NCBI GenBank assembly: GCA_016222825.1
Contig: JACRQF010000005.1
Location: 73,511 to 137,510 of the forward strand
Reading direction: 5' to 3'
Origin: Verrucomicrobiota bacterium
Lineage (GTDB): Bacteria > Verrucomicrobiota > Verrucomicrobiia > CAIQCK01
DNA: 64,000 bases
Positions within the stretch are counted from its first letter, which is position 1. Each line of letters begins with the position of its first letter. Both the position numbers and the translations under genes were made by a program. Of this stretch, positions 2,359 to 45,260 are shown piece by piece. A model generated the notes under the pieces. That model made no database searches, was not told the origin of the DNA, and saw only the letters and a program-made list of their open reading frames with translations.

Positions 2359-3339
2359 CTACTTCCTCTTCGCTGGCTTCTTGGCGGCGGGCTTCTTGAC
2401 GCTCTTGGCGCGCTTGGCGCTGGGGGCGGAGGCTTTGCGCGGGCGGGCGCGCTGGCGGCTCTTCAGGAGTGCGACGAGCGTCTCACCGATGACGGCGGGG
2501 GTCTCGGCCACGGCAATGCCCGCGGCGCGCAGGGCCTCGATCTTCGCCGCGGCGGTGCCTTTGCCGCCGCTGATGACGGCGCCGGCGTGGCCCATGCGGC
2601 GGCCCGGAGGCGCGGTCATGCCCGCGATGTAGGCGACGACGGGCTTTTTGCAATGCTCGCCGATCCACGCGGCGGCTTCTTCCTCGGCGCTGCCGCCGAT
2701 CTCGCCGATGAGGACGATGGCGTCGGTGGCGGGGTCGTTGTTGAAGAGCCGCACGGCTTCGAGATGGCTGGTGCCATTGACGGGGTCGCCGCCGATGCCG
2801 ATGCAGGTGCTCTGGCCGACGCCGCGGGTGGTGAGCTGCCAGACGGCCTCGTAGGTGAGCGTGCCGCTGCGGCTGACGACGCCGACGCTGCCGGGCTTGT
2901 GGATGTAGCCGGGCATGATGCCGATCTTGCACTGGCCGGGCGTGATGATGCCGGGGCAGTTCGGGCCGATGAGCCGCGTGCTCTTCTTCCCGGCGAGGAC
3001 GCGCTTGACCCTCACCATGTCGTTGACCGGGATGCCCTCGGTGATGCAGACGATGAGGGGGATGCCGGCGTCCGCCGCTTCGAGAATGGCGTCCGCCGCG
3101 AACGGCGCGGGCACGAAGATGCAGGTGGCGTTGGCGCCGGTCTGCCGCACGGCCTCGGCGCAGGTGTCGAAGACGGGCATCTTGACGCCGTCGAGGTCCA
3201 CCTCGCCCGCGCGGCCGGGCGTGACGCCGCCGACGACGTTGCCGGCGTATTTGTGGCAATGGGTGGCGTGAAACTTGCCGGCCGAGCCGGTGATGCCTTG
3301 GAAGATGACGCGGGTGTTTTTGTCAACGAGGATGCTCAT
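2359..3339 (-). CDS. sucD: Succinyl-CoA synthetase alpha subunit with an unusual ~35-aa lysine/alanine/proline-rich (histone H1-like) C-terminal extension
   Basis: Full-length SucD similarity ([25 protein letters not shown]...[21 protein letters not shown]). The tail is [34 protein letters not shown]. Confidence 0.92.
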
Positions 3340-3497
3340 GGGTGATGAATGGAAATTGGTGATTGGTAATCGGTGATTGGTGACTGGTGTCTGGTGGATG
3401 GTGACTCATAAACTGCTGGCGAGTAATTGGCAGCTTGTTCTTCTCGATACGTTCCATTCCAGATTACCAATTACCAATCACCAGTTACCAATCACAC
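3340..3497. repeat. Heptad-array hairpin element, copy 1: about 10 tandem heptamers (consensus NNYTGGT/GGTRAYY) followed by a ~50-nt spacer and the inverted heptamer array
   Basis: Left arm 3340-3409 (GGGTGAT GAATGGA AATTGGT GATTGGT AATCGGT GATTGGT GACTGGT GTCTGGT GGATGGT). Right arm 3459-3495 (AGATTACC AATTACC AATCACC AGTTACC AATCAC). It fills the sucD/sucC intergenic space and overlaps the sucC stop codon. Confidence 0.7.
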
Positions 3498-4685
3498 GCC
3501 CCGCGCCGCGCGGACGACTTTCTCCGCCGCGTCGGCCATGCCGGTGGCGGTGATGATCGGCAGGCCGCTCTCCTGCAACATCTTCTTGCCGAGTTCGACG
3601 TTGGTGCCTTCGAGCCGCACCACGAGCGGCACGGGGATGTGCACGGCCTTCGCGGCGGCGATGATGCCCGCGGCGAGCACGTCGCACTTCATGATGCCCC
3701 CGAAGATGTTCACGAGCAGCGCCTTCACGTTCTTGTCACTGCACAGGAGCTTGAACGCCGCCGTCACCTGCTCCACGCTCGCGCCGCCGCCGACATCGAG
3801 GAAGTTCGCCGGGCTGCCCCCGTAATGCTTGATGATGTCCATCGTCGCCATCGCGAGCCCCGCGCCGTTGACCATGCAGCCGATGTCGCCGTCGAGGCCG
3901 ATGTAGTTCAGGTCGTGCTTGCTCGCCTCCACGTCGCGCGGGTCTTCCTCGTTCGGGTCGCGCATCGCGGCGATGTCGGGATGCCGGAAGAGCGCGTTGT
4001 CGTCGAAGTTGAACTTCGCGTCCAGCGGGAAGACGGAGACCTTGCCGGCCGGGTCCGCCGCGACCGCCAGCGGGTTGATCTCCACCAGCGAGCAATCGCA
4101 CTCCCAGAAGATGCGGTAGATGTTCAGCATCAACTTCGTGCCCGCAGTGGCGAGGTCGCCACTGAGGCCGAGCGCCTTGCAGAGTTTGCGCGCCTGGAAC
4201 GGCATCATGCCGAGCGCGGGATCAATGATCTCCCTCACGATCTTCTCCGGCGTCTTCGCCGCCACCGTCTCGATATCCATGCCGCCTTCGGTGCTCGCGA
4301 TGACCACCGGCCGCGACACCGTGCGGTCCAGCAGCACCGCGAAATACAGCTCCCGCTGCACCTTCATGACGCTGGTGACGAGCACGCTGCGCACGACGCG
4401 GCCCTGCGGCCCCGTCTGGTGCGTCACGAGCGTCTTGCCGATCAGCTCGCGCGTGACGGCGGCGCATTCCTCGCGGGACTTGGCGAACTTCACGCCGCCG
4501 GCCTTCCCGCGACCGCCCGCGTGGATCTGCGCCTTGATGACGACCTGCGTGTCGGGTCCGTGCGCCGCGACGATCTCGTCGTAACGCGCCACCGCTTCGT
4601 CGGGCGTGCGGGCCACGCCGCCTGTCTCGACCGGGACGCCAAATCGCTTGAACAACTCCTTAGCCTGATATTCGTGGATATTCAT
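3492..4685 (-). CDS. sucC: Succinyl-CoA synthetase beta subunit
   Basis: [19 protein letters not shown]... ATP-grasp SucC. The ATG lies 3 codons inside the ORF-track start, which begins with TTG. Confidence 0.93.
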
Positions 4686-4777
4686 CGGTTCCAAAAACGC
4701 AACTGCGCGGCGTCTTCAAGCGTCGCGCAGAACGCAGCGAATGTAACACAGCGCGCCAAAGCCGCAACCCAAGGTTG

Positions 4778-4810
4778 AAAAAAGGCCCGCGCATTGCTGC
4801 GCGGGCCTTC
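4778..4810 (-). terminator. Rho-independent terminator downstream of the class I aldolase gene
   Basis: The minus strand reads GGCCCGCGCAGCAATGCGCGGGCC followed by TTTTTT, a GC-rich 10-bp stem plus U-tract about 35 nt after the stop at 4843. Confidence 0.6.
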
Positions 4811-4842
4811 TCGTTTGCGAATGGTTCGCTGGCGACGACCGG

Positions 4843-5721
4843 TTACTTCTTGTTCTTGATCGTCTGGTAGAGGTCGAACGCTTCCTTCGGCTTCATGTTG
4901 TCGTGCACGACGCCGCGCACGGCCTGGATCATCGCCACGGGATGTTCGGCCTGGAAGACGTTGCGGCCCATGTCCATGCCCGCCGCGCCTTGGTCAATCG
5001 CCTCGTAAGCCATCTGGAGCGCTTCGAGTTCGGGCAGTTTCTTGCCGCCGGCGACAACGATCGGCACGGGGCACGCCGCGGCGACTTTCTCGAAGCCGGG
5101 GCTGCAATAGTAGGTCTTCACGACATGCGCGCCGTTCTCCGCCACCACGCGCGTCGCGAGGCCGAGGTAACGCGCGTCGCGCACCAGTTCCTTGCCGACG
5201 GCGTTCACGCCGAGCGTCGGGATGCCCATGCGGTTGCCGGCGTCAATCAGTTGCGTGAGGTTGCGCATCGTCAGCGCCTCGAACTTCCCGCCGATGGCCA
5301 CCATCGCGGCCATGAGGCAGGCGTTGAGCCGCACCGATTCCTCGATGTCCATGACGCACTCGTCGTTGAGGTCGGTCAGGATGGTCGAGCCGGCCGACAC
5401 GCGCAGGGCGATCGGCTTGTTCGACGTCGGCGGCACGATCTGCCGCAACGCGCCGCGCGTGCACATGAGGCAGTCGGCGTAGGGGATCAACGGCGTGATG
5501 GTCAGGTCCATCCGCTCCAGGCCGGAGGTCGGGCCCATGATGTAGCCGTGATCGAACGCCAGCATGACGGTGCGGCCGCTCTTGGGGTTGAAGACGCGCG
5601 AGAGGCGGTCTTTCATGCCCCAATCGAGATGTCCGAGGCCCTTGAGGAAAAATCCTTCCGTCTTTTGCGGCACGCCAATGCCGTAGTCCTTGGCTTCCTG
5701 ATTTCCTGCTGCTTCTGCCAT
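4843..5721 (-). CDS. Class I (Schiff-base, DhnA/FbaB/DeoC-fold) fructose-bisphosphate aldolase family protein
   Basis: 293 aa from MAEAAGNQEAKDYGIGVPQKTEGFFLKGLGHLDWGMKDRLSRVF...; similarity to DhnA-type aldolases. The ORF track extends upstream through the repeat element, but the real start is M32. Confidence 0.75.
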   Translation of the reverse strand: MAEAAGNQEAKDYGIGVPQKTEGFFLKGLGHLDWGMKDRLSRVFNPKSGRTVMLAFDHGYIMGPTSGLERMDLTITPLIPYADCLMCTRGALRQIVPPTSNKPIALRVSAGSTILTDLNDECVMDIEESVRLNACLMAAMVAIGGKFEALTMRNLTQLIDAGNRMGIPTLGVNAVGKELVRDARYLGLATRVVAENGAHVVKTYYCSPGFEKVAAACPVPIVVAGGKKLPELEALQMAYEAIDQGAAGMDMGRNVFQAEHPVAMIQAVRGVVHDNMKPKEAFDLYQTIKNKK

Positions 5722-5732
5722 GATGTTTGTTC

Positions 5733-5873
5733 CTTTCGTGATTGGTGATTTGAAAATTGGTGACTGGTAATTGGTAATCGGTGATTCGTAACCCGTCAGA
5801 CTATTCGTTTGCAACGCATATCGGCCGACGCATCACGAATCACCAATCACCAGTTACCACTTACGAACCCACT
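5733..5873. repeat. Heptad-array hairpin element, copy 2 (GGTGATT/GGTAATC units)
   Basis: Left arm 5736-5795 (TCGTGATTGGTGATTTGAAAATTGGTGACTGGTAATTGGTAATCGGTGATTCGTAACCCG). Right arm 5829-5870 (CATCACGAATCACCAATCACCAGTTACCACTTACGAACCC). It sits between dhaL and the aldolase gene. Confidence 0.7.
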
Positions 5874-6496
5874 GCTTCTGCGAACGCCGTGAAAATGTGC
5901 GAGATGGATGTCGCGCCGGGATCGGCGTGGCCGCGCGTGCGGTCGCCGAGATTGCGGGCGCGGCCGAACTTCGCGACCATCTCCTTCGTTGCCTGTGCGC
6001 CGCGTGTCGCCGCGTCCGCGGCCTGCCGCAACGCCGCCGTGACATCCGCGCCGCCGTTGGCCGCCGCGCGCAACGCCTCCACCGCCGGCACGAGCGCGTC
6101 AATCATCGTCTTGTCGCCCGGCTGCGCCTTCGTCTGCTGCCGCAAGCCCGCGACGCCGGCCTCGAACATCGCCGCCGTCGCCTTTGCGTCCAGTTCTGCC
6201 GAGCTGCCCGCGCCTTCGCTCAAGCCGATGAAGAACGAGCCGAGCAACGGGCTGGTGGAACCGCCGTCCACGCTCATCACGTCCCAGCCGACCTTGTTGA
6301 GCAACTCCGTGATCTTGCCGCTCGTGTCGCCTTTCGCGGCGGTTTCGGCGGCGTCCATGACGCGGCAGATGGTCGTGCCGTGGTCTCCGTCGCCGGTGGC
6401 GGAATCGAGCGCCGAGAGGTCCTTCTCGTTCGCACGGATTCGCGCCGCCGCGGCGGCGATCATCTTAACAACGGTGTTGGTGCCGATAGTCTGCAT
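5861..6496 (-). CDS. dhaL: Dihydroxyacetone kinase subunit L (ADP-binding)
   Basis: ...DSATGDGDHGTTICRVM... DhaL signature. It lies downstream of dhaK. Confidence 0.85.
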   Translation of the reverse strand: MQTIGTNTVVKMIAAAAARIRANEKDLSALDSATGDGDHGTTICRVMDAAETAAKGDTSGKITELLNKVGWDVMSVDGGSTSPLLGSFFIGLSEGAGSSAELDAKATAAMFEAGVAGLRQQTKAQPGDKTMIDALVPAVEALRAAANGGADVTAALRQAADAATRGAQATKEMVAKFGRARNLGDRTRGHADPGATSISHIFTAFAEAVGS

Positions 6497-6595
6497 GGTT
6501 CGTGGCTCGTGATTCGTGATTTGTGACTCGTGATTCGTGGCTCGGATTACGGATTACGAATCACGAGTTACGAGTTACGGATTACGCATTACCTG
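6497..6595. repeat. Heptad-array hairpin element, copy 3 (CGTGATT/CGTGACT variant, essentially no loop)
   Basis: GGTTCGTGGCTCGTGATTCGTGATTTGTGACTCGTGATTCGTGGCTCGG followed directly by ATTACGGATTACGAATCACGAGTTACGAGTTACGGATTACGCATTACC. It occupies the 92-bp dhaK/dhaL gap and overlaps the dhaK stop. Confidence 0.7.
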
Positions 6596-7590
6596 ACCGT
6601 CATATACGGCGTATCGCACGGCGCGTCCCAATACTTCAGCAGCTCGTCGTCCATCTTCGCGACGAACATCTGGAAGCCGCCCATCTCCTGCACCGTCAGG
6701 AACTCGCCGACGCGGGCGCGCGCCAACACGATGCCCTTCTGCGCCAGCACCTTCCCGACGCCGCGCATGATGATGAACTGCTCCATCAGCGTCGTCGCGC
6801 CGGCGCCGTTGATGATCACCAGCACCTTGTCGCCCGCCTTGGCCTTCACCGCTTCGAGCAACTGCGTCACCATGATCGCCGCCGTCTCGTCGGCGCTCTT
6901 CATCTTCGAGCGGCCCGTGCCGGCCTCGCCGTGCTGGCCCATGCCGATCTCCATCTCGTCGTCCGCCAGCGCAAAAATGGACTGCCCGCTGGCCGGATGC
7001 GTCGCCGTCGTCAACGCCACCGCCAGCGTCGCCATGTTGTTGTTGAACCGCTCCGCCAGCGCGAGCACCTCGTCGAGACTCTTGCCGGCTTCGGCGGCGG
7101 CGCCGGCGATCTTGTAAAGCGGGATGCAGCCCACCAGACCGCGGCGGTTCTCGGCGGGAGCGTTCGCGCCGGGCGCAATGTCCTCGTGCGTGAGGATGCT
7201 CTTCACGTTCAGGCCGGCCTTCGTGGCCATCTGCATGGCGATGTTCGAGCTCATCACGTCGCCCGCGTGGTTGAGCACCACCAGCAACGTCCCCGCCGGG
7301 CGGTTGGTCAGCTTCAGCGCGTCGAACACCTTCGGCGCGGCCGGCGCGGCGAAAATGTCGCCGACGACGCTGATGTCGAGCATGCCCTCGCCGACAAACC
7401 CGCTGAGCGCCGGCTCGTGGCCCGCGCCGCCGAGCGTGACCAGCGCCACCTTCGACGGGTCCTTCGGGCGGGCGCGGCAGACGAGCTTCTCGTTCTTCAG
7501 CGCCACCTTGTCGGAGTAGGCGAGGGCAAAGCCCTCCAGCAACTCCGGCGTCAGGTTCTTCGGGTCGTTGATAAATTTCTTCATAACCAT
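6589..7590 (-). CDS. dhaK: Dihydroxyacetone kinase subunit K
   Basis: MKKFINDPKNLTPELLEGFALAYSDKVAL...LVTLGGAGHEPA... DhaK family. Confidence 0.88.
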   Translation of the reverse strand: MVMKKFINDPKNLTPELLEGFALAYSDKVALKNEKLVCRARPKDPSKVALVTLGGAGHEPALSGFVGEGMLDISVVGDIFAAPAAPKVFDALKLTNRPAGTLLVVLNHAGDVMSSNIAMQMATKAGLNVKSILTHEDIAPGANAPAENRRGLVGCIPLYKIAGAAAEAGKSLDEVLALAERFNNNMATLAVALTTATHPASGQSIFALADDEMEIGMGQHGEAGTGRSKMKSADETAAIMVTQLLEAVKAKAGDKVLVIINGAGATTLMEQFIIMRGVGKVLAQKGIVLARARVGEFLTVQEMGGFQMFVAKMDDELLKYWDAPCDTPYMTVR

Positions 7591-7685
7591 GGCTCTTGTT
7601 CTCCTGTGCTAATCGTCTTCCGCGTTGGAAAAATCGCCCGTGTTCTTACAGGGTTCTCCCGCCGATGCCAAGCGCAGTTTCACTA

Positions 7686-7790
7686 GGCGAGTTAAGAGTT
7701 CAGAATTAAGAGTGAAGAATTACGGACGCGGAAAGAGCGCCCTTGGAAGTTTCCGAAACTCTTAACTCTTAACTTTTCACTCTTAACGTC
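7686..7790. repeat. Heptad-array hairpin element, copy 4 (TTAAGAG/TGAAGAA units; same architecture, unrelated heptamer sequence)
   Basis: Left arm 7689-7725 (GAG TTAAGAG TTCAGAA TTAAGAG TGAAGAA TTACGG). Right arm 7753-7787 (CCGAAACTC TTAACTC TTAACTT TTCACTC TTAAC). It lies between the propeller gene stop (7799) and the dhaK start. Confidence 0.55.
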
Positions 7791-7798: not shown

Positions 7799-8680
7799 CT
7801 ACCTCTCCCCCGCCATCGCCTTCCCGCTGGCGTCCAGCTTCTGCACGGCCATCATCGTGCCGGCGAGTTTGGGATTCGCCAGACGCCAGACCAGCTTCTT
7901 CTCGCGCGTGATCTCCAGCAGGCCGGTGCCTTCGCCCTTGTCGTAGGCGCGATAACAGCCCGTCACGATGTTCCCGTTCGCCAGCAAGTGCAGGCCGGTC
8001 ATGTTCGTGATCTTCACGCCGGGGATGTCCGTGTTCGCAAACTCCCACACCACCTTCCCCGCCGCGCCGAACTCCAGCAGCTTGCCCAGCGACGAGACCA
8101 GCGTCGTCCCCTTCCCCGTGCGGACGGCGGCAAAGGCCAGATTCGGCGTCTTGAGCTCCAGCACCACGTCGCCCTTCGGCGTGTATTCCTTCACCACGTG
8201 CGCGCCGGAATGGCAGACGAGGTAGTGGCCGCTCTTGAGCTTGCGGACCATGCGCATGTTGTGATGCCCGCCGACCGTGGCCGGCTGGGTCTGCAACTCA
8301 AACACCACCTTCCCCGCCGCATCCACCTCCAACACGCGGCCCGTGGAGTTCTCGCCGATGAGCGTGCGGCCGTTGTCGAGCCGCTGGCAGGAAAAAGCGC
8401 CGCCGCCCTTCTGCTCGGCCGACTTGTATTGGAAGACGACCTTGTGGTCGGGCGTCACCTCCGTCACCGTCGCGCCGTCGGCAAAGAGCACGTTCCCGTT
8501 GGCGAGTCTCCAGGCATCGTGAGTGAGCGCTGTCGGATGCTCCCACTCCACCGCGCCGGCCGCTGACAGAATCATCACCCTCCGGTCGCCCGCCGCGAGC
8601 AACTTCCCGCCAACCTCACCCGTGATGTCCGTCGCGCTGCAAAACGCCGCCGCCCACAAGAACGCCAGAAGTTGTTTCAT
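7799..8680 (-). CDS. Secreted hypothetical protein, probable beta-propeller, with internal AAGKVVWE-type repeats and a C-terminal NPKLAGT motif; paralog of 25483..26424
   Basis: Signal peptide MKQLLAFLWAAAFCSA. Repeated AAGAVEWEH / AAGKVVFEL / AAGKVVWEF. It shares ...WRLANPKLAGT... with the 25483 ORF. Confidence 0.6.
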   Translation of the reverse strand: MKQLLAFLWAAAFCSATDITGEVGGKLLAAGDRRVMILSAAGAVEWEHPTALTHDAWRLANGNVLFADGATVTEVTPDHKVVFQYKSAEQKGGGAFSCQRLDNGRTLIGENSTGRVLEVDAAGKVVFELQTQPATVGGHHNMRMVRKLKSGHYLVCHSGAHVVKEYTPKGDVVLELKTPNLAFAAVRTGKGTTLVSSLGKLLEFGAAGKVVWEFANTDIPGVKITNMTGLHLLANGNIVTGCYRAYDKGEGTGLLEITREKKLVWRLANPKLAGTMMAVQKLDASGKAMAGER

Positions 8681-8706
8681 GATGGCCAGAACTATTCGCT
8701 CTTACC

Positions 8707-9453
8707 TTACGCAAACTTGGCGAATATGTTCAAAACGAGCACCTCGATGTGCGCCGATGCCCTACTCTCACCAATCTTGAGCGAATTGGGATGACCGCAC
8801 CCATTTCGTAACTGGAGACAGTTGTTCTTCAACTCCTCCTTCACGTTCTTGCCGATGATGCTAAGAGGTGGGCTGCCGATGATATCAAGGAAGTCGGATT
8901 CCTTCATCCTCGATAGGTCATCTTTCGCCTTTGCTGCTCTCCAATCGGCATCGCGCCTTTGTGCCTCGGCGTTGAAGGCGTGAAGATGCCGACCGAAAAC
9001 TTCGTCTTGTAATAACGACATAGCTCCCACCCAGGAGAGAACTACGGCGGCCCTGTAAAGACCAGCTTCGAAAGACTTGATCGCTTCGTCTAGAAAGGCC
9101 GATGTGTCTTGGTCAGTAATGCGTTTGGCGTGCTGCCGCAGGGAAGATGCAATATGCACAACCTTAACGCTCTTCTTCTCCGGAACCACTCCGAGTTTCT
9201 GCACATGGTCTTTCCCCTGTGATGTTATTGACCATCCATCCGGCAATCTGACCGCCAAGCTCTTGCCGCGCTTAAGAATGTCCGAGACGTTCCAGCTATG
9301 GATTTCTGTAAGGCCCGCGTTACGCCCCAGCTTCTTAATCTCATTCACCTCCTTTGGTTTGCTTGGGTCAACGCAGAGTATAATCAACAACGCATCCAGT
9401 CTAGGTAAGCGCTGTTTGTTTAGACTTTCTACAAGATCAGTTTCGCTAAGCAA
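8707..9453 (-). CDS. Hypothetical two-domain protein: unknown N-terminal domain plus C-terminal all-alpha region with an R-x4-H motif (LQLRNGCGHPN) resembling Abi_C/Swt1-type HEPN RNase domains; second gene of a low-GC cassette
   Basis: 248-aa ORF with G+C clearly below the flanks. The R-x4-H motif sits about 30 residues from the C-terminus, as in Abi_C HEPN proteins. Its start overlaps the upstream ORF stop by 8 nt. Confidence 0.5.
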   Translation of the reverse strand: MLSETDLVESLNKQRLPRLDALLIILCVDPSKPKEVNEIKKLGRNAGLTEIHSWNVSDILKRGKSLAVRLPDGWSITSQGKDHVQKLGVVPEKKSVKVVHIASSLRQHAKRITDQDTSAFLDEAIKSFEAGLYRAAVVLSWVGAMSLLQDEVFGRHLHAFNAEAQRRDADWRAAKAKDDLSRMKESDFLDIIGSPPLSIIGKNVKEELKNNCLQLRNGCGHPNSLKIGESRASAHIEVLVLNIFAKFA

Positions 9454-9928
9454 TCCGCCTCCTTATCTCATCAAGTTTCTTTGCCGATAGCGAAAAGTTG
9501 CCACCTGTAGCCTCTGTTATCGAACCATCGCCAAGCACTGTTTTGAGATATTTTGATAAGTTTTTTGAGTAGCTGGATTTGTAATAACCAGTTGCCGATT
9601 GCATCTCTTTAAGCAATTGCTTACGAGAAAACTCGCCATTCCCTTGAACCATTTCCAAGTTGGCTGCCGCTGCGAGGACAAGGTCAGGACCGCTTAAGCA
9701 AGTGAGCTTAGCGGCAATGGACTTTGTTGATAGTTGCAACTCCTTTCCTGTTGCGGCACCACCAGATTTTCCAGAGCCTGCATCGTCGAGCTTGATGTTC
9801 AGCGACCGTGACATTTCCGTCACGGTTTTAATCAGAACCGGAAGCTCCTGTTTGAGGAACGATTCCGATCCTTCATAATCCACTTCAATAGGGCCAAGTT
9901 TGATTCTGATCTTGCTTTCCATGTTCAT
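9446..9928 (-). CDS. Hypothetical 160-aa protein with no recognisable family; first gene of the low-GC cassette and candidate partner/antitoxin/sensor of the HEPN-like protein
   Basis: Clean ORF MNMESKIRIKLGPIEVDYEGSESFLKQELPVLIKTV..., translationally coupled to the downstream gene and with the same low G+C. Confidence 0.5.
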   Translation of the reverse strand: MNMESKIRIKLGPIEVDYEGSESFLKQELPVLIKTVTEMSRSLNIKLDDAGSGKSGGAATGKELQLSTKSIAAKLTCLSGPDLVLAAAANLEMVQGNGEFSRKQLLKEMQSATGYYKSSYSKNLSKYLKTVLGDGSITEATGGNFSLSAKKLDEIRRRIA

Positions 9929-10367
9929 CTCCTAGGTTTGCACCCTGGCAAGCCTGCAATCCAGCCGGGCGCGTTGTTGTTTGGTTCCAGTTCATCCGTT
10001 TGCGTCGTTCGTGGGGACGGCGTCTATAACCTCGCCGTTAAGGGGTTGGCTTGGATCGAAGATTGGCATGTCTCGGCCCTTTCCTCATGGGCGGTTTCTA
10101 CCGCAGCCGGCGAGGAAATGGAATCAAATTCTTTGCCCGCGAAACATGCGAAAAAACGCGAAAGGGAAGGCGGCCAGGCTGCAACCAGACAGGAGGAACA
10201 GAGGGGGCAAAATCATGGCTGACAAAATCATCATTTTGCCCTCAATGATTTTGCCCAAGAACTGTCCTCGGGAATCGTGGCACACTGCGGGAAATTTGAC
10301 GGATAGCGATACGGAAGGACGCGAAAGTGGAGAAGAAGGCGAAACTGTCAGTTGTCGGCTTTGAATG

Positions 10368-10485
10368 GTAGGGCGAGGCGTCCCGCCGAGCCGGTTCGCT
10401 GCCTGATATCTATACCGGCTCAGCGGGATGCCTCGCCCTACCTTGGTGCACGGCCTGCGGCTCGGCGGGACGCCTCGCCCTACCA
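10368..10485. repeat. Triple inverted-repeat structure: one 28-nt arm able to pair with either of two downstream complementary arms
   Basis: Arm 1 is GGTAGGGCGAGGCGTCCCGCCGAGCCGG (10368-10395). Arm 2 is CCGGCTCAGCGGGATGCCTCGCCCTACC (10416-10443, 2 mismatches). Arm 3 is GCTCGGCGGGACGCCTCGCCCTACC (10461-10485, essentially perfect). Confidence 0.6.
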
Positions 10486-10697
10486 AGCACAACCATCGTC
10501 GCCACGTGTGGGCACGCGGCCGACAACGATCAGCGGTCAGAGGCCGCTGCTACAGGGGGGCTTTTGGGGTGTGGATGTGGAAAAGCCATCCCGGAGGCCT
10601 CCGGAAGGGGTTTGGGAGGCTTCCCGGGCATGAAAATGATGATTTTTGTCAAAAAAGTTCCTTTTTCCGCTTCGGACGGGGTTTCCGGAGACTTGGA

Positions 10698-10965
10698 AGA
10701 TGTTTCCTCGTCGAGGGAAGATGTTTTGTCAGGCCATCAGTTAACATCTTTCCTCGATAAAGATGCTTCCTTCCTCAAGAAAGATGTTTTGTCACGCCGT
10801 CAGTTAACATCTTACCTCAACGAAGATGTTTCTTTGTTCAATAAAGATGTTTCCTTGTTGCACCAGTTAACATCTTTGTTCGACGAAGATGTTTTGTCGC
10901 GCCATCAGTTAACATCTTTGCTCAACAAGGATGTTTCCTCCCTCAACAAGGATGTTTCCTCAGAG
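10698..10965. repeat. AT-rich phased array of nine AAGATGTTT motifs at 21/42-bp spacing; four extended into 33-bp palindromes AAGATGTT-N17-AACATCTT containing a GTTAAC core
   Basis: Motif starts at about 10698, 10718, 10759, 10781, 10822, 10843, 10886, 10928 and 10949. The full palindromes are at 10718-10750, 10781-10813, 10843-10876 and 10886-10918. The array overlaps the dubious ORF 10564..11058. Confidence 0.65.
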
Positions 10966-11044
10966 GCCGGGAATGGCTTCGCTGAGCCGCTGGAACTGGT
11001 CAAAAAAAGCCAGAAACCCACGCCGCCGCGCCGACCTTGTTCCC

Positions 11045-14000
11045 CTACTCCTCGATGATGACGCGGAAGCCGACGTTGTAGGGGCGCTGCCAATCGGGGA
11101 CGGCCAAGCGGAAGGCGGAGCGGGCGAACTTGGGGCGCTCATACCAGGAACCGCCGCGGACGACTTTGGGGCCGGTGAGGCTGGCGTCGCTGGCGCCGGC
11201 GGCGGCGCTGTAGGGATAGGGGCGGAAGTTGGTGAGGGTCCACTCGCGGGCGTTGCCGTGCATGTTCTTCAGGCCCCAACGATTGGCGGCGAAGGCGTCC
11301 ACGTCGGCGAGCATGAGAACGCCGTCGTTGAAGCGGGGTTCCTTGGGGATGTAGTCCCAGAATTTGTCGGCGTTCTTGATCGGCTTCGGGTCCACGCCGC
11401 TGACGGCCATCTCGCTGAGGGTCTTGTCGCCGAGGTTTTCGCGCGCGGAGAAATCGGTATCGAGGTCGCCGTAGTTCATGGCGGTGTCGGTGCCGGCGCG
11501 GCAGGCCCATTCCCACTGGGCCTCGGTGGGCAACGTGACGCGCTTGCCGGTCTTCTGGGAGAGCCACTTGCAGAACTGCATGGCGCCGTCCCATGAGACG
11601 CGGATGGCGGGGAACTTCGGGTCGTCCATCGGGTAGCCGGGGTTGACCTGGTCCTTGTAGTGGCGGTCGTAGTGGGCGTTCTTGTGGGCGGGGTTGAAGG
11701 TCTGGTATTGGCCGAGGGAAACTTCGGTGACGCCCATCCAGAACGGTTTGGCGACGCGCACGACAGCGGTGGGCGATTCGTCGGAGAAGCCGTTGGCGTC
11801 GCCCATGACGAACGTGCCGGCGGGGATGCGCTTGAACTTCATGAGGAGACCGTTGCCGAGGTCTATGGCCAGGTCGGTGTTGCCGAGCGCGGACTGCATC
11901 TGCGCGGCTTTGGCGGCGTCGAAGGGCCAGCCGGGGAGATTTTGGATTTTGGATTTTGGATTTTGGATTTTTTCCAGCTCCGGTGCAATGAACGCGAGGC
12001 GCTGGGTGTAGTTGACCGGGATGGCTTCGATGTCTTCGTCCACGTTGGAGTAGAGCTTCCGCATCTCGTAGCGGCGCTTCTCGAAGTTCTTCGGAATCTC
12101 GCGCGCCTCGTGCCAGGTGCCGTAGCACGGGACGTTGAGGTCAATCCACGTGATGAGCCGGTCCCAGGCCTCGGCGTCGAGTTTGACGTTGTGGTGGCCC
12201 TTCTGGAGGATCTGGACCAACTCGCTGGTGTCGGCGTGGAACTCCAGTGGCGTCAGGAGATGGTAGTCGCCCTCGGGACCGTTGCGGCGCACGAACGGAT
12301 GCAGCGCCAGATACGACGCAGGCAACGGCGAGCCGGTGCTGGTGCGGACGATGTTGGTGTCGGCGAAATTCGGCTGAGTGGGAATCTTCCCGTCGTGGCA
12401 GCCGACGCAATACTTGTCGAGCACGGGCTGCACCTCGCGCGCGAAGGAGAAGCCGCGCTTCGGCCCGCGCCACGGCTTCGGGATGGAGGCTTCCCCGCGG
12501 GCGGCATCGCTATGGTTGAGGGTGAGCGAGTAGTGCTGCGGCTCGTGACAACCGGTGCAGGAAACGCGCTCGCCCGGCACGCCGACGAACCAGCTCCGCA
12601 TGTGTTGGAGCGCCTTGCCCTCCGCGTCGAGCGGCTGGATGGCGACAGGGGTGTTCGCGGGAATCTCGAAGTAAGCGGAGCCGTCGGGCTGAACCGGCAC
12701 GGTGCCGATGATGCGGCGCACGTCCCACGGGCCTTCCATGCCGACGAAGTAGTGCCCGCCCATGTTCCGGTAGGAATACTCATACTGGAAGATGCGCAGC
12801 GACTTGACCGTGCCCGGAGGCACACCCGCGAGGCCGGGGCCGGCGTAGATGTTCTGCACGGAAACGCTGGCGGTGGTCTTCGAGAGGTCCACGCGGTCGG
12901 GGATGACCGGCGGCGGCGTGGTCTTGCGCAGCGGGATCGGCTCGAACATCGCCTGGCCCGGCTGCTCCTTCAGGAGGATCATGTTGTCGAAGATGTCCAC
13001 GAGATAGAGGCCCCAGTTCGCGCGTCCGTCGAGTTTGCAGGAGACGAGGAATTGTTTGTCGCTCAGCGGGAACGGATGGAGGAACTTTGGCCATGAGTCG
13101 TTAACGAGGCCGTCCTTGATGATCGGCTCGACTTTCTTGCCATAGCCGGGAATGCGCTGCACCGCGCCGGAGCCTTCATGGCGGCCCTTGCTGGCGTCGA
13201 AGAGGACCAGTTCGCCCGCGCGCGCGACGCCGTGATGGCCGGTGACGATGGCGCAGAACATGGAGGGCTTGCCCGGCAGCGGCTTCGCGTAGAACATCGA
13301 GTTCGGCCAGTAGCTGTTGCTGCCGTAGAACTCCTGCTGGGCGGTGCCATCGGGGTTCATGTGCATCATCACGCGGCTGAAGTAGTGCGCGGAGTCGGTG
13401 TATTCCCAGCGCAGATACATCACGCGACCATCCTCCATCATGGTGGGATACCAGTCGTTGTCCTGGTCGTAACAGAGGCGGCGGACGTTCTTGCCGTCGG
13501 CGTCCATGATGTGGAGGTTCGCGACGTAGTCGCTGCCGCCGACGCACGGCACGCCCTGAAACGTGCTGCTGCAATCGAAGATGATGCGGCCGTCGGGCAG
13601 ATACGTGCCGTCGTAGTTGTCCACGTCGTCATATTCGCCGCGCGATACCTGGCGGAAGCCGCTGCCGTCGAGCTTCGCCTCGAAGACCTGCCAGCGGTCG
13701 TTGGAGCCGATGGACGAGAACAGGATGCGCTCGCCGTCGAAGTGGAGACGCATGTCACCGACGAACACGTCGCGCTGCGGCTTGAAGACGCGCTGGAGCG
13801 GGGCGTTCTTCTCGCGGAGGGAGAGCGTGGCGATTTCGTTGACCGTGGCGGGCTTGACGCTGGAGTTGCCCTGCCAGTTGGCCGGCAGGCAGAGCCGGTT
13901 GCCGTCGCGCTTGACGAAGAGGATCTTGTCGAAGTTGATGACCGGGTTGTTGAGGATCAACGCCTCGCGCTGGAGGTTGTCGCAACGCGCGCCGAACTCC

Positions 14001-15019
14001 ATGATGGCCTTGTCGTCGCCGTCCGCGAGCGCCTTCTGGATGGCGGGCATCTCCTTCTCGATGGCCTCGAGCCGCGCAAGGAAATCGGCACTCTTCGTGT
14101 ATTTGTCCGGATAAGTCTTGGCCAGGTCCTCGATGGCAAGCCGCAGCGCCTTCGTGTTCACCGATTTGAGCAGCGCCGTGGTCTCTTCGAGCGCCTTCAC
14201 CTTCCGCGCGACCATGAGGAACAGGTCGAGCCAAGCGGCGTCGGAAGACACGGCCTTGCTCTTGACCATCTCGTCGAGCTTCGCGCTCTCGGCTGTGGCG
14301 CTCTTGAGTTTGCGCAGCATCGAGCCGATCACGCCGCGCTCCTGCCCAACATTCGAGTCGTCAATGAACCACCGCGGGTAACCGGAGAAATACGTCACGA
14401 AGAGCTGGTTCTCGTCGCCGAACTTGGCATCGAGCTTCGCTAATTCCGTCGAAACAACCGGGCCGCTGGAGTAGAAGAAGCTGCTAACCTCTTTGCTGCA
14501 ATGGATGCGGATGAGCAACTCGTTCTTTCCCTTCGCGAGATCGAGCGTGAGCTTCTCCCGCGCGCCCGGCTTCTCCTGCGCGAGCACCTGCTTCTGGTTC
14601 AGCCAAACCGTGAGGCTGTCCGCCGCGCCCAGTTCCACGACGAGCTTCGCCGGCTCCTTGGCGGTAATCGCGCGATACGCATAGACCGCGGTATCCGGCG
14701 TGGCACGGACCTCGGTGTTCTGGCCGTCGGTCCAGTTCATCCGGTTCCAAAGCGACCTCCGCCCGCCGGCAACCTTCGCCTTCAGGTCAACGCTCACCTC
14801 CGGCTCGACCTTGGCGCTGCGGTTCTTCTTGTTGACGCGCTGCGGCTCCGTGGAATGCCAGTCGCCTTCCTCGATGCCCTTGCGCACGGCCATCACCTGT
14901 TGGCGAATGCCGTGGATGGCCTTGTTCCATTCCGCCGACGCCGCGGCGTCGTCCGATGGCCAGCACATCACTGTTATCGCTGCCGCAAATGTCGCCTGTA
15001 AGTAAACAGATACCTTCAT
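11045..15019 (-). CDS. Giant secreted multidomain protein: signal peptide, galactose-binding-like N-terminal domain, TolB-like beta-propeller, CxxCH-containing PSCyt-like region, C-terminal FGE-sulfatase (SUMF1/formylglycine-generating-enzyme-family) domain
   Basis: 1324 aa. CxxCH motifs (SCTGCHEPQ, VQPVLDKYCVGCHDGK). C-terminal FGE motifs (RVSWDGAMQFCKWLS, GNAREWT, VVRGGSW). The central region is paralogous to ORFs 26421 and 29227. Confidence 0.8.
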   Translation of the reverse strand: MKVSVYLQATFAAAITVMCWPSDDAAASAEWNKAIHGIRQQVMAVRKGIEEGDWHSTEPQRVNKKNRSAKVEPEVSVDLKAKVAGGRRSLWNRMNWTDGQNTEVRATPDTAVYAYRAITAKEPAKLVVELGAADSLTVWLNQKQVLAQEKPGAREKLTLDLAKGKNELLIRIHCSKEVSSFFYSSGPVVSTELAKLDAKFGDENQLFVTYFSGYPRWFIDDSNVGQERGVIGSMLRKLKSATAESAKLDEMVKSKAVSSDAAWLDLFLMVARKVKALEETTALLKSVNTKALRLAIEDLAKTYPDKYTKSADFLARLEAIEKEMPAIQKALADGDDKAIMEFGARCDNLQREALILNNPVINFDKILFVKRDGNRLCLPANWQGNSSVKPATVNEIATLSLREKNAPLQRVFKPQRDVFVGDMRLHFDGERILFSSIGSNDRWQVFEAKLDGSGFRQVSRGEYDDVDNYDGTYLPDGRIIFDCSSTFQGVPCVGGSDYVANLHIMDADGKNVRRLCYDQDNDWYPTMMEDGRVMYLRWEYTDSAHYFSRVMMHMNPDGTAQQEFYGSNSYWPNSMFYAKPLPGKPSMFCAIVTGHHGVARAGELVLFDASKGRHEGSGAVQRIPGYGKKVEPIIKDGLVNDSWPKFLHPFPLSDKQFLVSCKLDGRANWGLYLVDIFDNMILLKEQPGQAMFEPIPLRKTTPPPVIPDRVDLSKTTASVSVQNIYAGPGLAGVPPGTVKSLRIFQYEYSYRNMGGHYFVGMEGPWDVRRIIGTVPVQPDGSAYFEIPANTPVAIQPLDAEGKALQHMRSWFVGVPGERVSCTGCHEPQHYSLTLNHSDAARGEASIPKPWRGPKRGFSFAREVQPVLDKYCVGCHDGKIPTQPNFADTNIVRTSTGSPLPASYLALHPFVRRNGPEGDYHLLTPLEFHADTSELVQILQKGHHNVKLDAEAWDRLITWIDLNVPCYGTWHEAREIPKNFEKRRYEMRKLYSNVDEDIEAIPVNYTQRLAFIAPELEKIQNPKSKIQNLPGWPFDAAKAAQMQSALGNTDLAIDLGNGLLMKFKRIPAGTFVMGDANGFSDESPTAVVRVAKPFWMGVTEVSLGQYQTFNPAHKNAHYDRHYKDQVNPGYPMDDPKFPAIRVSWDGAMQFCKWLSQKTGKRVTLPTEAQWEWACRAGTDTAMNYGDLDTDFSARENLGDKTLSEMAVSGVDPKPIKNADKFWDYIPKEPRFNDGVLMLADVDAFAANRWGLKNMHGNAREWTLTNFRPYPYSAAAGASDASLTGPKVVRGGSWYERPKFARSAFRLAVPDWQRPYNVGFRVIIEE
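11937..11972. repeat. Heptanucleotide microsatellite (GGATTTT)x~5 (AAAATCC on the coding strand) inside the 1324-aa ORF, encoding KIQNPKSKIQN
   Basis: Direct reading of 11937-11972; the unit length is not a multiple of 3. Confidence 0.7.
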
Positions 15020-17639: not shown

Positions 17640-18206
17640 CTAAACGGTCATGATGTCTTTTTCCTTCAAGCCGAGGTGGCGTTCGATCTCGGCGACGTAT
17701 TGGTCGGTCAGCTTCTGGACTTCCTTCTCAGCCGTAGCCAGTTCGTCCTCGGTGATCTTGCCGTCCTTCTGGGTCTTCTTGACGGCATCGAGGCCCTCGC
17801 GGCGCTCGTTGCGGATGGCGACGCGGCTGTTCTCGGCGATGCGGTGGGCGTTTTTAACATTTTGCCTGCGCCCTTCCTCGCTTGGCTGGGGAAGGAAGAT
17901 ACGAATCACCTTGCCGTCCACGCGTGGTGTGGCGCCGAGGTTGGCTTTCAACAGCGCTTTTTCGATCGGCTGGACGTTACTCGCGTCCCACGGCTGGATA
18001 GAGATGGTCCGGGCGTCGGGCGTGGAGATGCCGGCAACGTCCTTCAGGCGCATCATGGTGCCGTAGGTCTCGATCTGGATGTTCTCCACTTGTGACACGG
18101 AGGCGCGGCCCGTGTGGATGGCGGCCAGTTCACGTTCGAAGACCTCGACGGTCTTGAGCATCTTCTCTTCGGTTTCCAGCAGGATTTCGTCAACGCATTC
18201 TGGCAT
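17640..18206 (-). CDS. frr: Ribosome recycling factor
   Basis: Full-length RRF similarity (...IHTGRASVSQVENIQIETYG...). Confidence 0.93.
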   Translation of the reverse strand: MPECVDEILLETEEKMLKTVEVFERELAAIHTGRASVSQVENIQIETYGTMMRLKDVAGISTPDARTISIQPWDASNVQPIEKALLKANLGATPRVDGKVIRIFLPQPSEEGRRQNVKNAHRIAENSRVAIRNERREGLDAVKKTQKDGKITEDELATAEKEVQKLTDQYVAEIERHLGLKEKDIMTV

Positions 18207-40131: not shown

Positions 40132-41430
40132 ATGAGCACTGAGAACCAACAAACCCGTCGTCAATTCCTTCGAACGTCCGCAGCCGCCGCCGTGGCTGCC
40201 AGCAGCCTGTCTGTCGAGCGCGCCGCACACGCGGCTGGCAGCGGTGTCATCAAGATCGGCATGATCGGTGCTGGCGGTCGGTGCGCGGGCGCCGCCGCGA
40301 ATGCCATGAACTCTGGCCGCGATGTCCGCCTTGTGGCCATTCACGACGTCTTCATGGATCGCGTGAAAGGCAAGCTGGAGGCGCTCAAGAAGCAGAAGCC
40401 CGATCAAGTGCAAGTGGACGACACGCATTGCTTTGATGGGCTGGAAGGCTACAAAGGCGTTATTGAGGCCAGCGACGTGGTGCTCATCGCCAACGCAGCC
40501 AAGTTTCACCCCTTCTACACGATGGCCGCCGTGAAGGCCGGCAAGCACGTCTTTTGTGAGAAGCCGCATGGCATTGACCCGCACGGCATCAAAACGCTCA
40601 AAGCAGCGTGTGAACTGGCCAAGCAGAAGAAGCTCTCCGTTGTTTCCGGTCTCCAAAGCCGCTACGACAACGCCTACCAAGAAACGATGAAGCGCATCCA
40701 CGACGGCGCAATCGGCGACATCGTAGCGATTGAGGAGAACTTCCTGCGCCAACCATACGGCATTTATCGCCGTCAGGAAGGCTGGACCGAAGTGCAAAGC
40801 CAGTTCGGCAACCAGTATCACTTCGTCTGGCTCAGCGGCGATGACGTGCCGCAGTCGCTCGTCCACAACATGGACCGTGCGACGTGGGCCATGAGGGAAA
40901 CGCCACCGCTGAAATGCCACGGCCTCGGCGGCCGCGCCTCGTCGTTCAGTCCGGAACACGGCAACGTCTTCGACCATCACTCGGTCATCTATCACTACGC
41001 GAACGGCGTGCGGGCTTACGCGTTTTGCAGGACCGAGGTGCGCTGCTACAACGAGACTTCCAGCATCATCCTCGGCAGCAAGGGCCGCTGCTTTCTGTTG
41101 CAGTGCCGCATCGAAGGCGAGACGAACTGGAAGTTTGAAGGCAAGCGCAACATCGCCACCGACGCCGAACATCAGGTGTTGTTCGATTCCATCCGCAACG
41201 GCAAGCCGGTCAACAACGGCGACTACATGGCGCGCAGCACGCTCATCACCATCATGGGCCAGATCAGTTGCTACACCGGTGCGGAAGTGACGTGGGACCA
41301 GATCAACAAGTCCGACTTCTTCTTTGCGCCGAAGTGCGAGGACTGCCGCATGGACATGGAGCCGCCCGTCAAGCTCGGCCCCGACGGCACCTACCCGGTC
41401 TATGTGCCGGGCGTGACGAAGCTGATTTAG
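40132..41430 (+). CDS. Gfo/Idh/MocA-family oxidoreductase with Tat signal (tandem copy 2, very similar to 38822..40120)
   Basis: Near-identical N-terminus and motifs throughout; 432 aa, as in copy 1. Confidence 0.85.
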   Translation: MSTENQQTRRQFLRTSAAAAVAASSLSVERAAHAAGSGVIKIGMIGAGGRCAGAAANAMNSGRDVRLVAIHDVFMDRVKGKLEALKKQKPDQVQVDDTHCFDGLEGYKGVIEASDVVLIANAAKFHPFYTMAAVKAGKHVFCEKPHGIDPHGIKTLKAACELAKQKKLSVVSGLQSRYDNAYQETMKRIHDGAIGDIVAIEENFLRQPYGIYRRQEGWTEVQSQFGNQYHFVWLSGDDVPQSLVHNMDRATWAMRETPPLKCHGLGGRASSFSPEHGNVFDHHSVIYHYANGVRAYAFCRTEVRCYNETSSIILGSKGRCFLLQCRIEGETNWKFEGKRNIATDAEHQVLFDSIRNGKPVNNGDYMARSTLITIMGQISCYTGAEVTWDQINKSDFFFAPKCEDCRMDMEPPVKLGPDGTYPVYVPGVTKLI

Positions 41431-41536
41431 AGAGAAAGGAAACAAGCAACCACGGAATGCACCAAGCGCACGAAAAGAACTGACGACCTCGTCGCTGTCT
41501 TCCGTGCATTTCGTGCATTCCGTGGTTCCCATAATC

Positions 41537-42322
41537 ATGAACGCATTCTTGAAAGCGGGCTTCTGTGTGCTACTCGCCTCTGCAATCTCAACCGCCACTG
41601 CCGCGGAGCAGAAACAACCTGATGGTTATCCCTATGCCGGCCCGCCCGCCGCGCCGGCGAAACCGTTGCAGGTGCTGGTCGTCACCGGTTGCGATTATCC
41701 CGGTCACAAATGGCCGCTGACGACGCCGGCACTGGCGCAGGGCTTGCGTGAAGACCCGCGCGCCGATGTGCGCGTCGTCGAGGACGCGAACTTCCTCGAT
41801 TCGGCGGCACTGAGCCGCTACCACGTCGTCGTCCTGAACTACATGAACTGGAAGACGCCGGGGCCGGGCGAGACCGCGCGCGCGAACCTCAAGCGGTTCG
41901 TCGAGAACGGCAGCGGCTTGGTGCTGGTCCACTTCACTTGCGGCGCGTGGATGGAATGGCCGGAGTTTGTGAACCTCGCCGGCCGCGTCTGGAACCCGAA
42001 ACTACGCGGCCACGACCCGCGCGGGCCGTTCAAGGTTGAGATCGTCCAGCCGGAGCATCCGATCATGAAGGGCTTGCAGCCTTTCGAGACCGAGGACGAA
42101 CTTTACACATGTCTCGACGGCAACGTGCCCATCGAGGTGCTCGCGAAGGCGGTGTCGAAGGTGGACAAAAAGGATTACCCAATGGCGTTCGTGCTGAACG
42201 TCGGCAAGGGGCGCGTCTTCCATTCGCCGCTCGGTCACGACGTGAAAGCATTCAGCCCGCCCGTGCTCGGACTTTTCCGTCGCGGCACGGCGTGGGCCGC
42301 GGGCAAAACACCGACGCCGTGA
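41537..42322 (+). CDS. ThuA-like (trehalose-utilisation/class-I glutamine-amidotransferase-like) secreted protein
   Basis: LQVLVVTGCDYPGHKW...HVVVLNYMNW...GSGLVLVHF pattern typical of ThuA (PF06283); signal peptide. Confidence 0.7.
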   Translation: MNAFLKAGFCVLLASAISTATAAEQKQPDGYPYAGPPAAPAKPLQVLVVTGCDYPGHKWPLTTPALAQGLREDPRADVRVVEDANFLDSAALSRYHVVVLNYMNWKTPGPGETARANLKRFVENGSGLVLVHFTCGAWMEWPEFVNLAGRVWNPKLRGHDPRGPFKVEIVQPEHPIMKGLQPFETEDELYTCLDGNVPIEVLAKAVSKVDKKDYPMAFVLNVGKGRVFHSPLGHDVKAFSPPVLGLFRRGTAWAAGKTPTP

Positions 42323-43797: not shown

Positions 43798-43838
43798 GAA
43801 GCAGGATTGAACCAAACCCGAACCAAAGGAGAACGAAC

Positions 43839-45163: not shown

Positions 45164-45260
45164 AGAATGCTCCAGTGGTTCGCGCCCTTGTAACTCCGCC
45201 CCTCCCGGCAAGGCAAGCGTATTTCCCGACCGTCAGACATAGCCCGGGGAGGCGGTAGGA

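Follow-up and report, generated by a model that had tools for sequence, protein, structure and literature searches.

Tandem arrays of 7-nt units are the best-known over-represented class of long simple sequence repeats (SSRs) in bacteria (PMC4692102). Each genome of Xanthomonas campestris and X. axonopodis has 70-75 convergent inverted pairs of GGGAATC heptamers, which lie close to stop codons or overlap them; the repeats are transcribed, and their presence and type (single array or inverted pair) are conserved between species, with variable length (PMC4692102, Rehm et al. 2015). The TAACTGA repeats of marine Beggiatoaceae, cyanobacteria, and Bacteroidetes are mostly intergenic and end a few nucleotides from start codons, where they replace the Shine-Dalgarno (SD) sequence; these arrays overlap upstream stop codons, hold stop triplets in all three frames, and vary between strains by 7-nt indels (PMC4679880, MacGregor 2015). 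Here we describe five intergenic elements, E1 to E5, in a 64-kb stretch of DNA from a Verrucomicrobiota bacterium (contig JACRQF010000005.1, positions 73,511 to 137,510; hereafter the window), each made of two oppositely oriented arrays whose 7-nt units are degenerate. These elements are palindromic heptanucleotide microsatellites, a new member of the known intergenic 7-nt SSR class: they hold at least three tandem copies of a 7-nt unit, such arrays are intergenic at many loci, and their copy number changes between relatives in steps of 7 nt. The 7-bp period, which the initial annotation of this DNA considered unusual, is the period of that class.

The closest match is the GGGAATC family of Xanthomonas, which likewise has intergenic 7-nt units with the G-rich strand first, stem-loops, and a bias toward stop codons; all five window elements are convergent pairs of the Xanthomonas type. 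However, GGGAATC units are G-rich and form G-quadruplexes, whereas the window units are of the GTRAT type with a stop triplet and are more degenerate (67-93% matches within arrays). Turnover also looks faster here, arrays being absent or replaced at 86-91% DhaL identity, as against 83% conservation between the two Xanthomonas species (PMC4692102). The A/C-rich arms of the window elements extend to SD-less start codons, as TAACTGA arrays do, but the latter are nearly always direct arrays of one exact unit, with one inverted case, whereas the window has mainly inverted pairs, built from degenerate units. The cyanobacterial heptamers also have several unit sequences per genome, intergenic positions, and over-representation relative to other periods; secondary accounts describe them as direct arrays in which gene polarity and hairpin pairing are not defining. 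The name STRR for these tandem heptanucleotide repeats reportedly goes back to Mazel et al. in 1990. An excess of 7-nt SSRs in many bacteria, possibly arising by polymerase slippage, was noted by Mrazek in 2007, as cited in PMC4692102 and PMC4679880.

Repetitive extragenic palindromes (REPs) and bacterial interspersed mosaic elements (BIMEs) are likewise intergenic, often intra-operonic, hairpin-forming, and transcribed. REPs, however, have one conserved palindrome per family and are mobilized by RAYT, whereas the window elements have only the 7-nt unit, tandem periodicity, and in-place length change. We rejected a REP/BIME identity because unit types differ between copies, the sequences show no common 20-40-nt imperfect palindrome and no GTAG or CGTC head, and the longest strings that copies have in common consist of repeat units in a row. 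A search of the whole window, both strands, against Rfam 15 at gathering thresholds gave no match.

Anatomy and predicted folding of the five elements

Array detection was confined to the window as far as the source genome is concerned. Tandem Repeats Finder located period-7 arrays at 3355-3404, 3463-3492, 5738-5786, 5832-5852, 6499-6539, 6546-6592, 7689-7722, 7757-7787, 44696-44766, and 44789-44808, with 3-10 copies per arm and 67-93% matches; its period-14 and period-21 rows were the same arrays as the period-7 rows. Variants among the units are mostly transitions. In our own scan of periods 4-12, at a threshold of at least 22 self-matches in 28, period 7 scored at 95 positions and all other periods at zero, and a scan with a shorter window gave seven arrays at period 7, one at period 12, and none at the remaining periods. 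An inverted-repeat search joined each left array to its right array, with arms of 27-48 nt, 75-89% complementarity, and loops of 15-90 nt. These searches and comparison with shuffled sequences bear out the five elements of the initial annotation, and the unit sequences it gave for each copy are correct: TGGTGAT/TGGTAAT in E1, E2, and E5; CGTGATT/CGTAATC in E3; and TTAAGAG/TGAAGAA in E4. The same sequences recur in two independent Logan assemblies, L001 and L082, in both of which E2 is identical to the window copy, so the repeats are not an assembly artefact. An exact-protein look-up for SucD returned no record; for DhaL and the aldolase, the only matches were short contigs of the same study, and their arrays are identical.

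Four of the elements lie in one gene cluster on the minus strand, whose mRNA order is an open reading frame (ORF, 7799-8680), E4, a leader, dhaK (6589-7590), E3, dhaL (5861-6496), E2, an aldolase gene (4843-5721), a terminator, sucC (3492-4685), E1, and sucD (2359-3339). The genes were taken from the ORF list and from Pfam matches, which place the aldolase, labelled fba in the initial annotation, in the DeoC/LacD family. Five gaps separate the genes from ORF 7799-8680 to sucD; heptad elements hold four of them, and the fifth, between fba and sucC, holds a classical terminator. The earlier statement that the elements lie on stop codons and fill operon gaps is supported; four of the five have the upstream stop in their first unit (E1, E2, E3, and E5).

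E1 (3346-3497, minus strand) occupies the sucC-sucD gap and consists of a G/U-rich arm (3463-3497), a unique loop of ~55 nt (3405-3462), and an A/C-rich arm (3346-3404). The units of its 5' arm read GGUGAUU/GGUAAUU/GGUAACU in the mRNA, the first including the sucC stop codon (TGA, 3492-3494); its 3' arm overhangs the stem, which would leave ~20 nt of unpaired, SD-less leader ahead of the sucD ATG (3339). E2 (5733-5873, minus strand), in the dhaL-aldolase gap, has a G/U arm at 5832-5868 that includes the dhaL stop codon (TAA, 5861-5863), a unique loop, and an A/C arm at 5738-5786 followed by a conserved AAAGGAAC leader and the aldolase ATG at 5721. E3 (6497-6595, minus strand) is the entire dhaK-dhaL gap: seven units of the CGUAAUC/CGUGAUU type, a loop of ~5 nt, and six units of the CACGAAU type, the first unit starting on the dhaK stop codon (TAA, 6589-6591) and the last reaching the dhaL ATG (6496). 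E4 (7686-7790, minus strand) lies 5' of the conserved dhaK leader, 11 nt past the stop codon (7799-7801) of ORF 7799-8680. On the mRNA strand its purine- and G-containing arm (GUUAAGA/GUGAAAA, 7787-7757) comes first and its C-containing arm (UUCUUCA/CUCUUAA, 7722-7689) second; on the plus strand the arms read TTAAGAG/TGAAGAA and AACTCTT. E5 (44696-44835) lies between the convergent genes 43794-44699 (plus) and 44843-45211 (minus) and has ~10 and ~6 units around a short loop. Its left units (GGTGATT/CGTAATT/CGTGGTT) start on the TGA at 44697-44699 and its right units read AATCACC/AATTACC/CACGAG; a G/U arm leads on both transcripts.

Read as a transcript, every element runs from a G/U-rich arm through a loop to an A/C-rich arm. 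The G/U-arm units (GGUGAUU, GGUAAUU, CGUAAUC) contain UGA or UAA and, since 7 is not a multiple of 3, three such units are enough to close all three reading frames with a stop. By contrast, the A/C-arm sequence (AAUCACC, AAUUACC, CACGAAU) is almost free of G, holds no start or stop triplets, and extends to the next start codon; in E1 and E2 it is longer than the 5' arm. An SD-like motif is absent at sucD and dhaL, whereas a weak one precedes roughly every second gene among the others in the window.

All five elements fold well below dinucleotide shuffles on both strands, with z scores from -2.7 to -9.3. Predicted sense-strand energies were -58.2 kcal/mol for E1 (z -8.3), -58.0 for E2 (z -6.4), -27.0 for E3 (z -3.6; antisense -56.3, z -9.3), and -39.9 for E4 (z -6.4); E5 gave -61.7 and -52.4 kcal/mol, with z about -5.1 on both strands. 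When flanks were included, the leader from -20 to -1 was predicted to be unpaired at 0.82 in E1, 0.73 in E2, and 0.58 in E3, and the upstream stop was predicted to lie in the stem base of E1 and E2. Several pairing registers reach 80-87% complementarity, so there is no register-specific covariation.

The same gaps in relatives

A DhaK-anchored genome scan and DhaL homologues put the window among metagenome-assembled genomes (MAGs) labelled Verrucomicrobiia, and several of the lineages found share its gene order. The dhaK-dhaL gap gives a graded series. It measures 92 nt in the window, with 7+6 heptads; 63 nt in L203 and L204 (DhaL 91% identical), with 4+2 heptads of TACGTAA/TGCGTAA; 69 nt in L205 (89%), with 3+4 heptads; and 50 nt in L002 (87%), with 2+2 heptads. 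The same gap holds an unrelated GC-rich palindrome in L208 (86%, 65 nt) and no significant hairpin in L206 (88%, 36 nt), while in L003, whose DhaL was not aligned, the genes abut or overlap (~0 nt). A first unit of the form xCGTAAx, beginning at the stop codon, is common to all heptad-bearing dhaK-dhaL gaps, and a hairpin of some kind is retained in five of seven lineages despite replacement of its sequence. Graded unit numbers at one junction (overlap, 2+2, 4+2, 3+4, 7+6) point to growth and shrinkage in place.

The other gaps behave similarly. The dhaL-aldolase gap of L203 and L204 carries a shorter homologue of the GGTRAT hairpin of E2; between E2 and L203 the loop differs by 14 nt and the arm by ~15 nt, about two units each. 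That gap holds a REP-like palindrome in L205, L002, and L208, and in L206 it comprises 25 nt with a plain SD sequence. The sucC-sucD gap measures 152 nt in the window, where it holds E1, versus 31-33 nt in relatives; to judge from these gaps, E1 is specific to the source lineage. The sucC-sucD gap in L208 (3575-3607) is a solitary array of four CTCTTCA units and that in L206 (7956-7986) reads CTTTTCA CCCTTCA; both resemble the C-rich arm of E4 (CTCTTAA), which suggests that in this clade the SD-less leader of sucD is usually a small, G-poor heptad array. E4 is absent from L206, L207, and L002, whose upstream gene differs. Start-proximal leaders (ATTTCCATT; GAAAGGAACAAACATC) are conserved across relatives, from which it follows that the arrays sit between the stop codon and the old leader.

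On the evidence of these gaps, the arrays change in place and quickly, their unit sequence is not conserved, and the recurrent traits are the 7-nt period and, often, a hairpin from stop to start. This agrees with the earlier proposal that period and inversion are conserved rather than sequence, since units differ in two further MAGs (L038 and L039, discussed below) and unit numbers vary between close relatives.

The palindromes that replace heptad hairpins in relatives are GC-rich and REP-like (CTGTAGCGGCGGTCT...AGACCGCCGCTACAG; GGTAGGGCGAGGCGTCCCGCC...) and lie at 11700-11780 in L002, 1715-1795 in L205, and 1205-1330 in L208. They fill the same gaps as the window heptad hairpins, and so the two kinds share one niche. 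Similar GC-rich inverted repeats are present in the window at 10357-10494 and 45654-45766.

The ~95 nt 5' of dhaK (7591-7680 in the window, 9900-10000 in L002, 3870-3962 in L206) are conserved though everything farther upstream differs. The conserved pattern is GCGCTTGGCATCGG..GAACC.TGTAAGAACACGGGCG.TTTT.CC..CGCGGAA, and within it a T run follows a small hairpin (7637-7652, minus strand). The dhaKL-aldolase operon may have its regulatory leader or an attenuator here.

Breadth and polarity of period-7 arrays

The comparison set came to ~2 Mb of fetched DNA, including the 80 DhaK-anchored loci and metagenome loci with TGGTRAT arrays; the latter were retrieved with a query of three TGGTRAT units and comprise at least 120 loci of 33-67% GC. 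At the DhaK-anchored loci, the density of period-7 arrays is 4.1 per 100 kb in contigs labelled as belonging to the Planctomycetes-Verrucomicrobia-Chlamydiae (PVC) group versus 0.6 per 100 kb in others, and arrays of other periods are hardly present. The metagenome loci hold at least 270 period-7 arrays, with many further arrays of other units; among the first 80 of these loci listed there are 185 period-7 arrays, as against at most 19 for any other period. Some of the elements retrieved closely resemble those of the window. One, in L191, is near-identical in style to E2, and another, in L103, reads TAA-(GGTGACA)n...(AATTACC)13-ATG, the array of 13 AATTACC units being perfect.

Array orientation is, statistically, constrained relative to transcription. 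Of the 20 inverted pairs in the fetched DNA that could be scored, 18 begin with the G-rich arm (p = 4e-4), including pairs built from the unrelated units TGGTAGG, GTGGAAA, and TTCAGAG; in GTRAT-type pairs, the GT-type arm precedes the AC-type arm by 15 to 1. By a crude ORF rule (at least 100 codons) used in place of proper gene calls, the sense strand of arrays adjoining starts is richer in C than in G by 57 to 24, and that of arrays following stops is richer in G than in C by 70 to 37; solitary arrays lean the same way (22 to 8 and 19 to 9). Among 106 cases, the real stop shares the phase of the array in 32, versus 10 expected, a roughly three-fold excess by the same crude calls. Polarity that holds across unit types and contigs points to a constraint at the mRNA level. 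A telomere-like 'end-healing' origin of the G-first order was also considered and set aside as less economical than the graded in-place series.

Origin and role of the arrays

We propose that the elements are self-expanding palindromic microsatellites shaped by mRNA constraints, a reading to which we would assign a probability of about 0.5. A 7-nt unit, usually one with the upstream stop triplet (T[GA]A within GTRAT), would be duplicated by slipped-strand events, and both arms would afterwards lengthen and shorten by whole units in place, with the stop codon as their seed, as the comparison of relatives suggests. Every functional step would act at the mRNA level. The stop-bearing G/U strand would be harmless past an ORF, and the G-poor strand, which lacks start and stop triplets, would give an unstructured, SD-less leader. 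The arms would pair into a 30-40 bp hairpin with the upstream stop at its base, the longer 3' arm leaving ~20-30 nt of A/C-rich leader. Such a hairpin would hide 60-120 inserted bases and keep the single-stranded distance from stop to start near that of array-less relatives: ~20 nt in E1 versus 31-33 nt in relatives, and ~30 nt in E2 versus 25 nt in L206. Preservation of this distance may be why insertions are tolerated between genes for subunits of one complex (SucC/SucD, DhaK/DhaL). Ribosomes are able to re-initiate close to a stop codon, and coupled translation of SucC/SucD and of DhaK/DhaL would be kept.

As a by-product, the hairpin would probably be a barrier to 3' exonucleases or a processing site, by analogy with REP hairpins, rather than a terminator. 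REP/BIME hairpins stabilize upstream mRNA in Escherichia coli operons. A role of the window elements in mRNA stability, processing, or translation is plausible.

Several observations weigh against this proposal. The MAGs L038 and L039, which belong to the Thermoguttaceae, in another phylum, have different heptad units in the dhaK-dhaL gap between flanks that are ~95% identical; such a swap of whole units is faster than simple slippage plus point mutation predicts. No array length polymorphism was found among three assemblies of the same population, and an array purity of 67-93% is odd for an actively slipping microsatellite. E1, E2, and E5 have exact stretches of 15-20 nt in common, made solely of repeat units, which could reflect copying between loci instead of independent growth. 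A test of G-U wobble pairing by strand revealed no consistent advantage of the mRNA strand: E2 and E4 favor the sense strand, E1 and E3 the antisense strand. The better antisense folding of E1 and especially of E3 speaks against strong selection for a hairpin in the sense strand. In addition, the gene calls behind the orientation and stop-phase figures are crude ORF heuristics.

Of the other explanations, the one that survives best, although we regard it as unlikely, is that the arrays are neutral or selfish palindromic DNA: the replisome would slip in 7-nt steps, inverted partners would arise by fold-back or template switching, and nothing would happen at the RNA level. The rapid gain, loss, and replacement of arrays between close relatives is what such DNA would show, as are the unrelated GC-rich REP-like palindromes in the same gaps of L208, L205, and L002, the lack of any such element in L206, and the lack of a sense-strand folding advantage; the slippage hypothesis for heptamers, in the form quoted in PMC4679880 and PMC4692102, is of the same kind. 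Neutral DNA does not, however, predict the G-first order in 18 of 20 pairs, the placing of C-rich arrays ahead of starts and of G-rich ones past stops, or arrays that start exactly on stop codons. Because a C-rich-first palindrome would form the same DNA hairpin, a purely DNA-level process fails to explain the order of the arms.

The initial annotation favored transcript punctuation. On this view the hairpins would be terminators or attenuators lacking a U tract, or dedicated RNase III or RNase E processing or stability elements that set different expression levels within the operon. The hairpins are long and stable, E5 in its convergent gap and E4 just past a stop codon occupy terminator-like positions, and some hairpin is kept in the dhaK-dhaL gap of five of seven lineages. 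On the other hand, no U tract or T run directly follows the whole heptad hairpin in any of the five elements, three of which lie between genes of one operon, so an identity as intrinsic terminators was rejected. A terminator-consensus scan gave six matches in total, equal to the shuffle expectation; those inside elements were two short stems in loop regions with weak T-containing tails, at 3413-3433 (plus strand) in E1 and 7742-7724 (minus strand) in E4. An internal control for the appearance of a terminator in this genome is provided by the canonical one after fba (4778-4812, minus strand), a 15-bp GC-rich stem followed by UUUUUU (-38.6 kcal/mol) that is outside the repeat family and is kept in L002, L206, and L208. 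Termination within sucC-sucD or dhaK-dhaL would split the subunit genes of one enzyme, which makes a terminator or attenuator role for those two copies unlikely. Moreover, L206 and L003 do without a hairpin, and E3 is weak on the sense strand. We therefore consider transcript punctuation as a whole quite unlikely.

Somewhat more doubtful still is a bolder version of an mRNA role, in which heptad arrays are not slippage debris but a translational punctuation that spans phyla: the ribosome, or an RNA-binding protein of the cold-shock-domain or S1-like kind whose footprint is 7 nt, would read the stop-bearing G/U-rich array past a stop codon and the G-free A/C-rich array ahead of a start codon. 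As parts of the same doubtful package, SD-independent re-initiation would be driven across the hairpin base, and the opposite, C-rich-first order would expose a C-rich, G-poor Rho-loading site before the partner arm is transcribed. If true, this would explain why polarity is kept while sequence is not, and why 7-nt arrays are common in lineages some of which may use SD sequences sparingly. Such sparing use is reported for cyanobacteria, Bacteroidetes, and the PVC group. Limited use of SD sequences (25% of genes) is documented for the Beggiatoaceae (PMC4679880).

We hold it very unlikely that the arrays serve to bind a protein whose footprint is 7 nt or 7 bp, whether an RNA-binding protein of the cold-shock-domain or S1-like kind or a DNA-binding ribbon-helix-helix (RHH) protein such as omega/ParB. 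The period is strictly 7 whatever the sequence, and binding of one CspB per heptamer has been discussed for TAACTGA arrays (PMC4679880). The parS heptads of pSM19035 are contiguous 7-bp WATCACW units, direct and inverted, that are bound by omega, an RHH ParB; 7-10 units overlap three promoters of a partition and copy-control module with RHH and ParA genes (PMC9499535). The window units are contiguous too, and their commonest form, AATCAC[C/G], agrees with WATCACW at six of seven positions, with an exact AATCACA at 3490-3496; yet many units read ATTACC, GTTACC, or CACGAG, and units vary from site to site within a genome and, at a single site, from one close relative to another. Omega requires at least four contiguous heptads (PMC9499535), whereas in the window loops part the arms; the family spans contigs of 33-67% GC; and the setting is gaps of a chromosomal metabolic operon (sucCD, dhaKL, and the DeoC-family aldolase) in which a Pfam scan of seven neighboring proteins detected no RHH or ParA protein. 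The setting and the diversity of units argue against an omega/ParB operator, and we keep the resemblance as one of form only.

That the elements are a diversifying family of the MITE (miniature inverted-repeat transposable element) or REP-like kind spread by transposition, as the initial annotation had also proposed, is largely refuted and hardly credible, since the several copies in the window, the IS481-family transposase gene there, the 15-20 nt stretches shared by E1, E2, and E5, and the presence of E1 here and its absence in relatives are outweighed by loops without a second copy in the window or any fetched locus, the lack of a conserved core, terminal inverted repeats, target-site duplications, or any match to Rfam or another family, shared stretches that are purely repeat units, and graded arrays that share their first unit at one orthologous site. 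The transposase ORF (270-1325) has rve, HTH_32, and LZ_Tnp_IS481 domains. Upstream of it, at 185-245, is a weak 25-nt direct repeat, CAGGTTCA.(A/T)ACAT.GGTAACA; it had been taken for a possible decayed copy of the heptad family, but its period-7 self-match (0.24) is at background.

The window contains other repeats. A perfect array of five GATTTTG units (11938-11971) lies inside a 1324-aa ORF (11045-15019, minus strand), where it is translated as a KIQNPKSKIQN linker. The likely L206 orthologue of this ORF has HZS_alpha and FGE-sulfatase domains, and the L002 orthologue has a degenerate array (KISNLKSQIQN) at the same place; a similar second array is present in L002 (sites 4872-4913 and 17758-17796). 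Because 3 x 7 nt equals seven codons, heptad arrays can persist in coding linkers. Between the co-directional genes 40132-41430 and 41504-42322 lies an inverted element of ~9-nt units (TTCCGTGCA/TTTCGTGCA; 41448-41527) with the C/A-rich arm first and a predicted energy of -43.3 kcal/mol (z -7.3); its architecture is similar to that of the heptad elements, but its period and polarity are not. Tandem repeats of 21, 42, and 63 bp, composed of direct and inverted copies of the motifs GAAGATGTTTCC and CAGTTAACATCTT, occupy 10696-10961 within ~2.3 kb (8681-11044) that crude calling leaves without a gene; they look like an iteron or binding-site array. Tandem Repeats Finder also reported repeats at 45304-45517, with units of 21/42 bp, and at 47048-47710, with 5.3 copies of a 126-bp unit; the latter has a length divisible by 3 and may code for repeats in a protein.

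The preference of bacteria for 7-nt over 5-, 6-, or 8-nt repeats, a puzzle that dates from 2007 or earlier, is not explained by this locus. In practical terms, such arrays break short-read assemblies and may mislead gene callers, as starts abut SD-less repeats. The paired arrays described here extend the heptamer class to Verrucomicrobiota and the wider PVC group, where the literature we found does not mention it; a search for work on heptamer repeats in PVC phyla (Planctomycetes, Verrucomicrobia, Rhodopirellula) turned up no paper. They also provide a clean evolutionary series, at one operon junction, of palindromic arrays resizing in place. Nothing in this is new in kind, but the polarity rule and the graded orthologous series together make the heptamer puzzle more testable.

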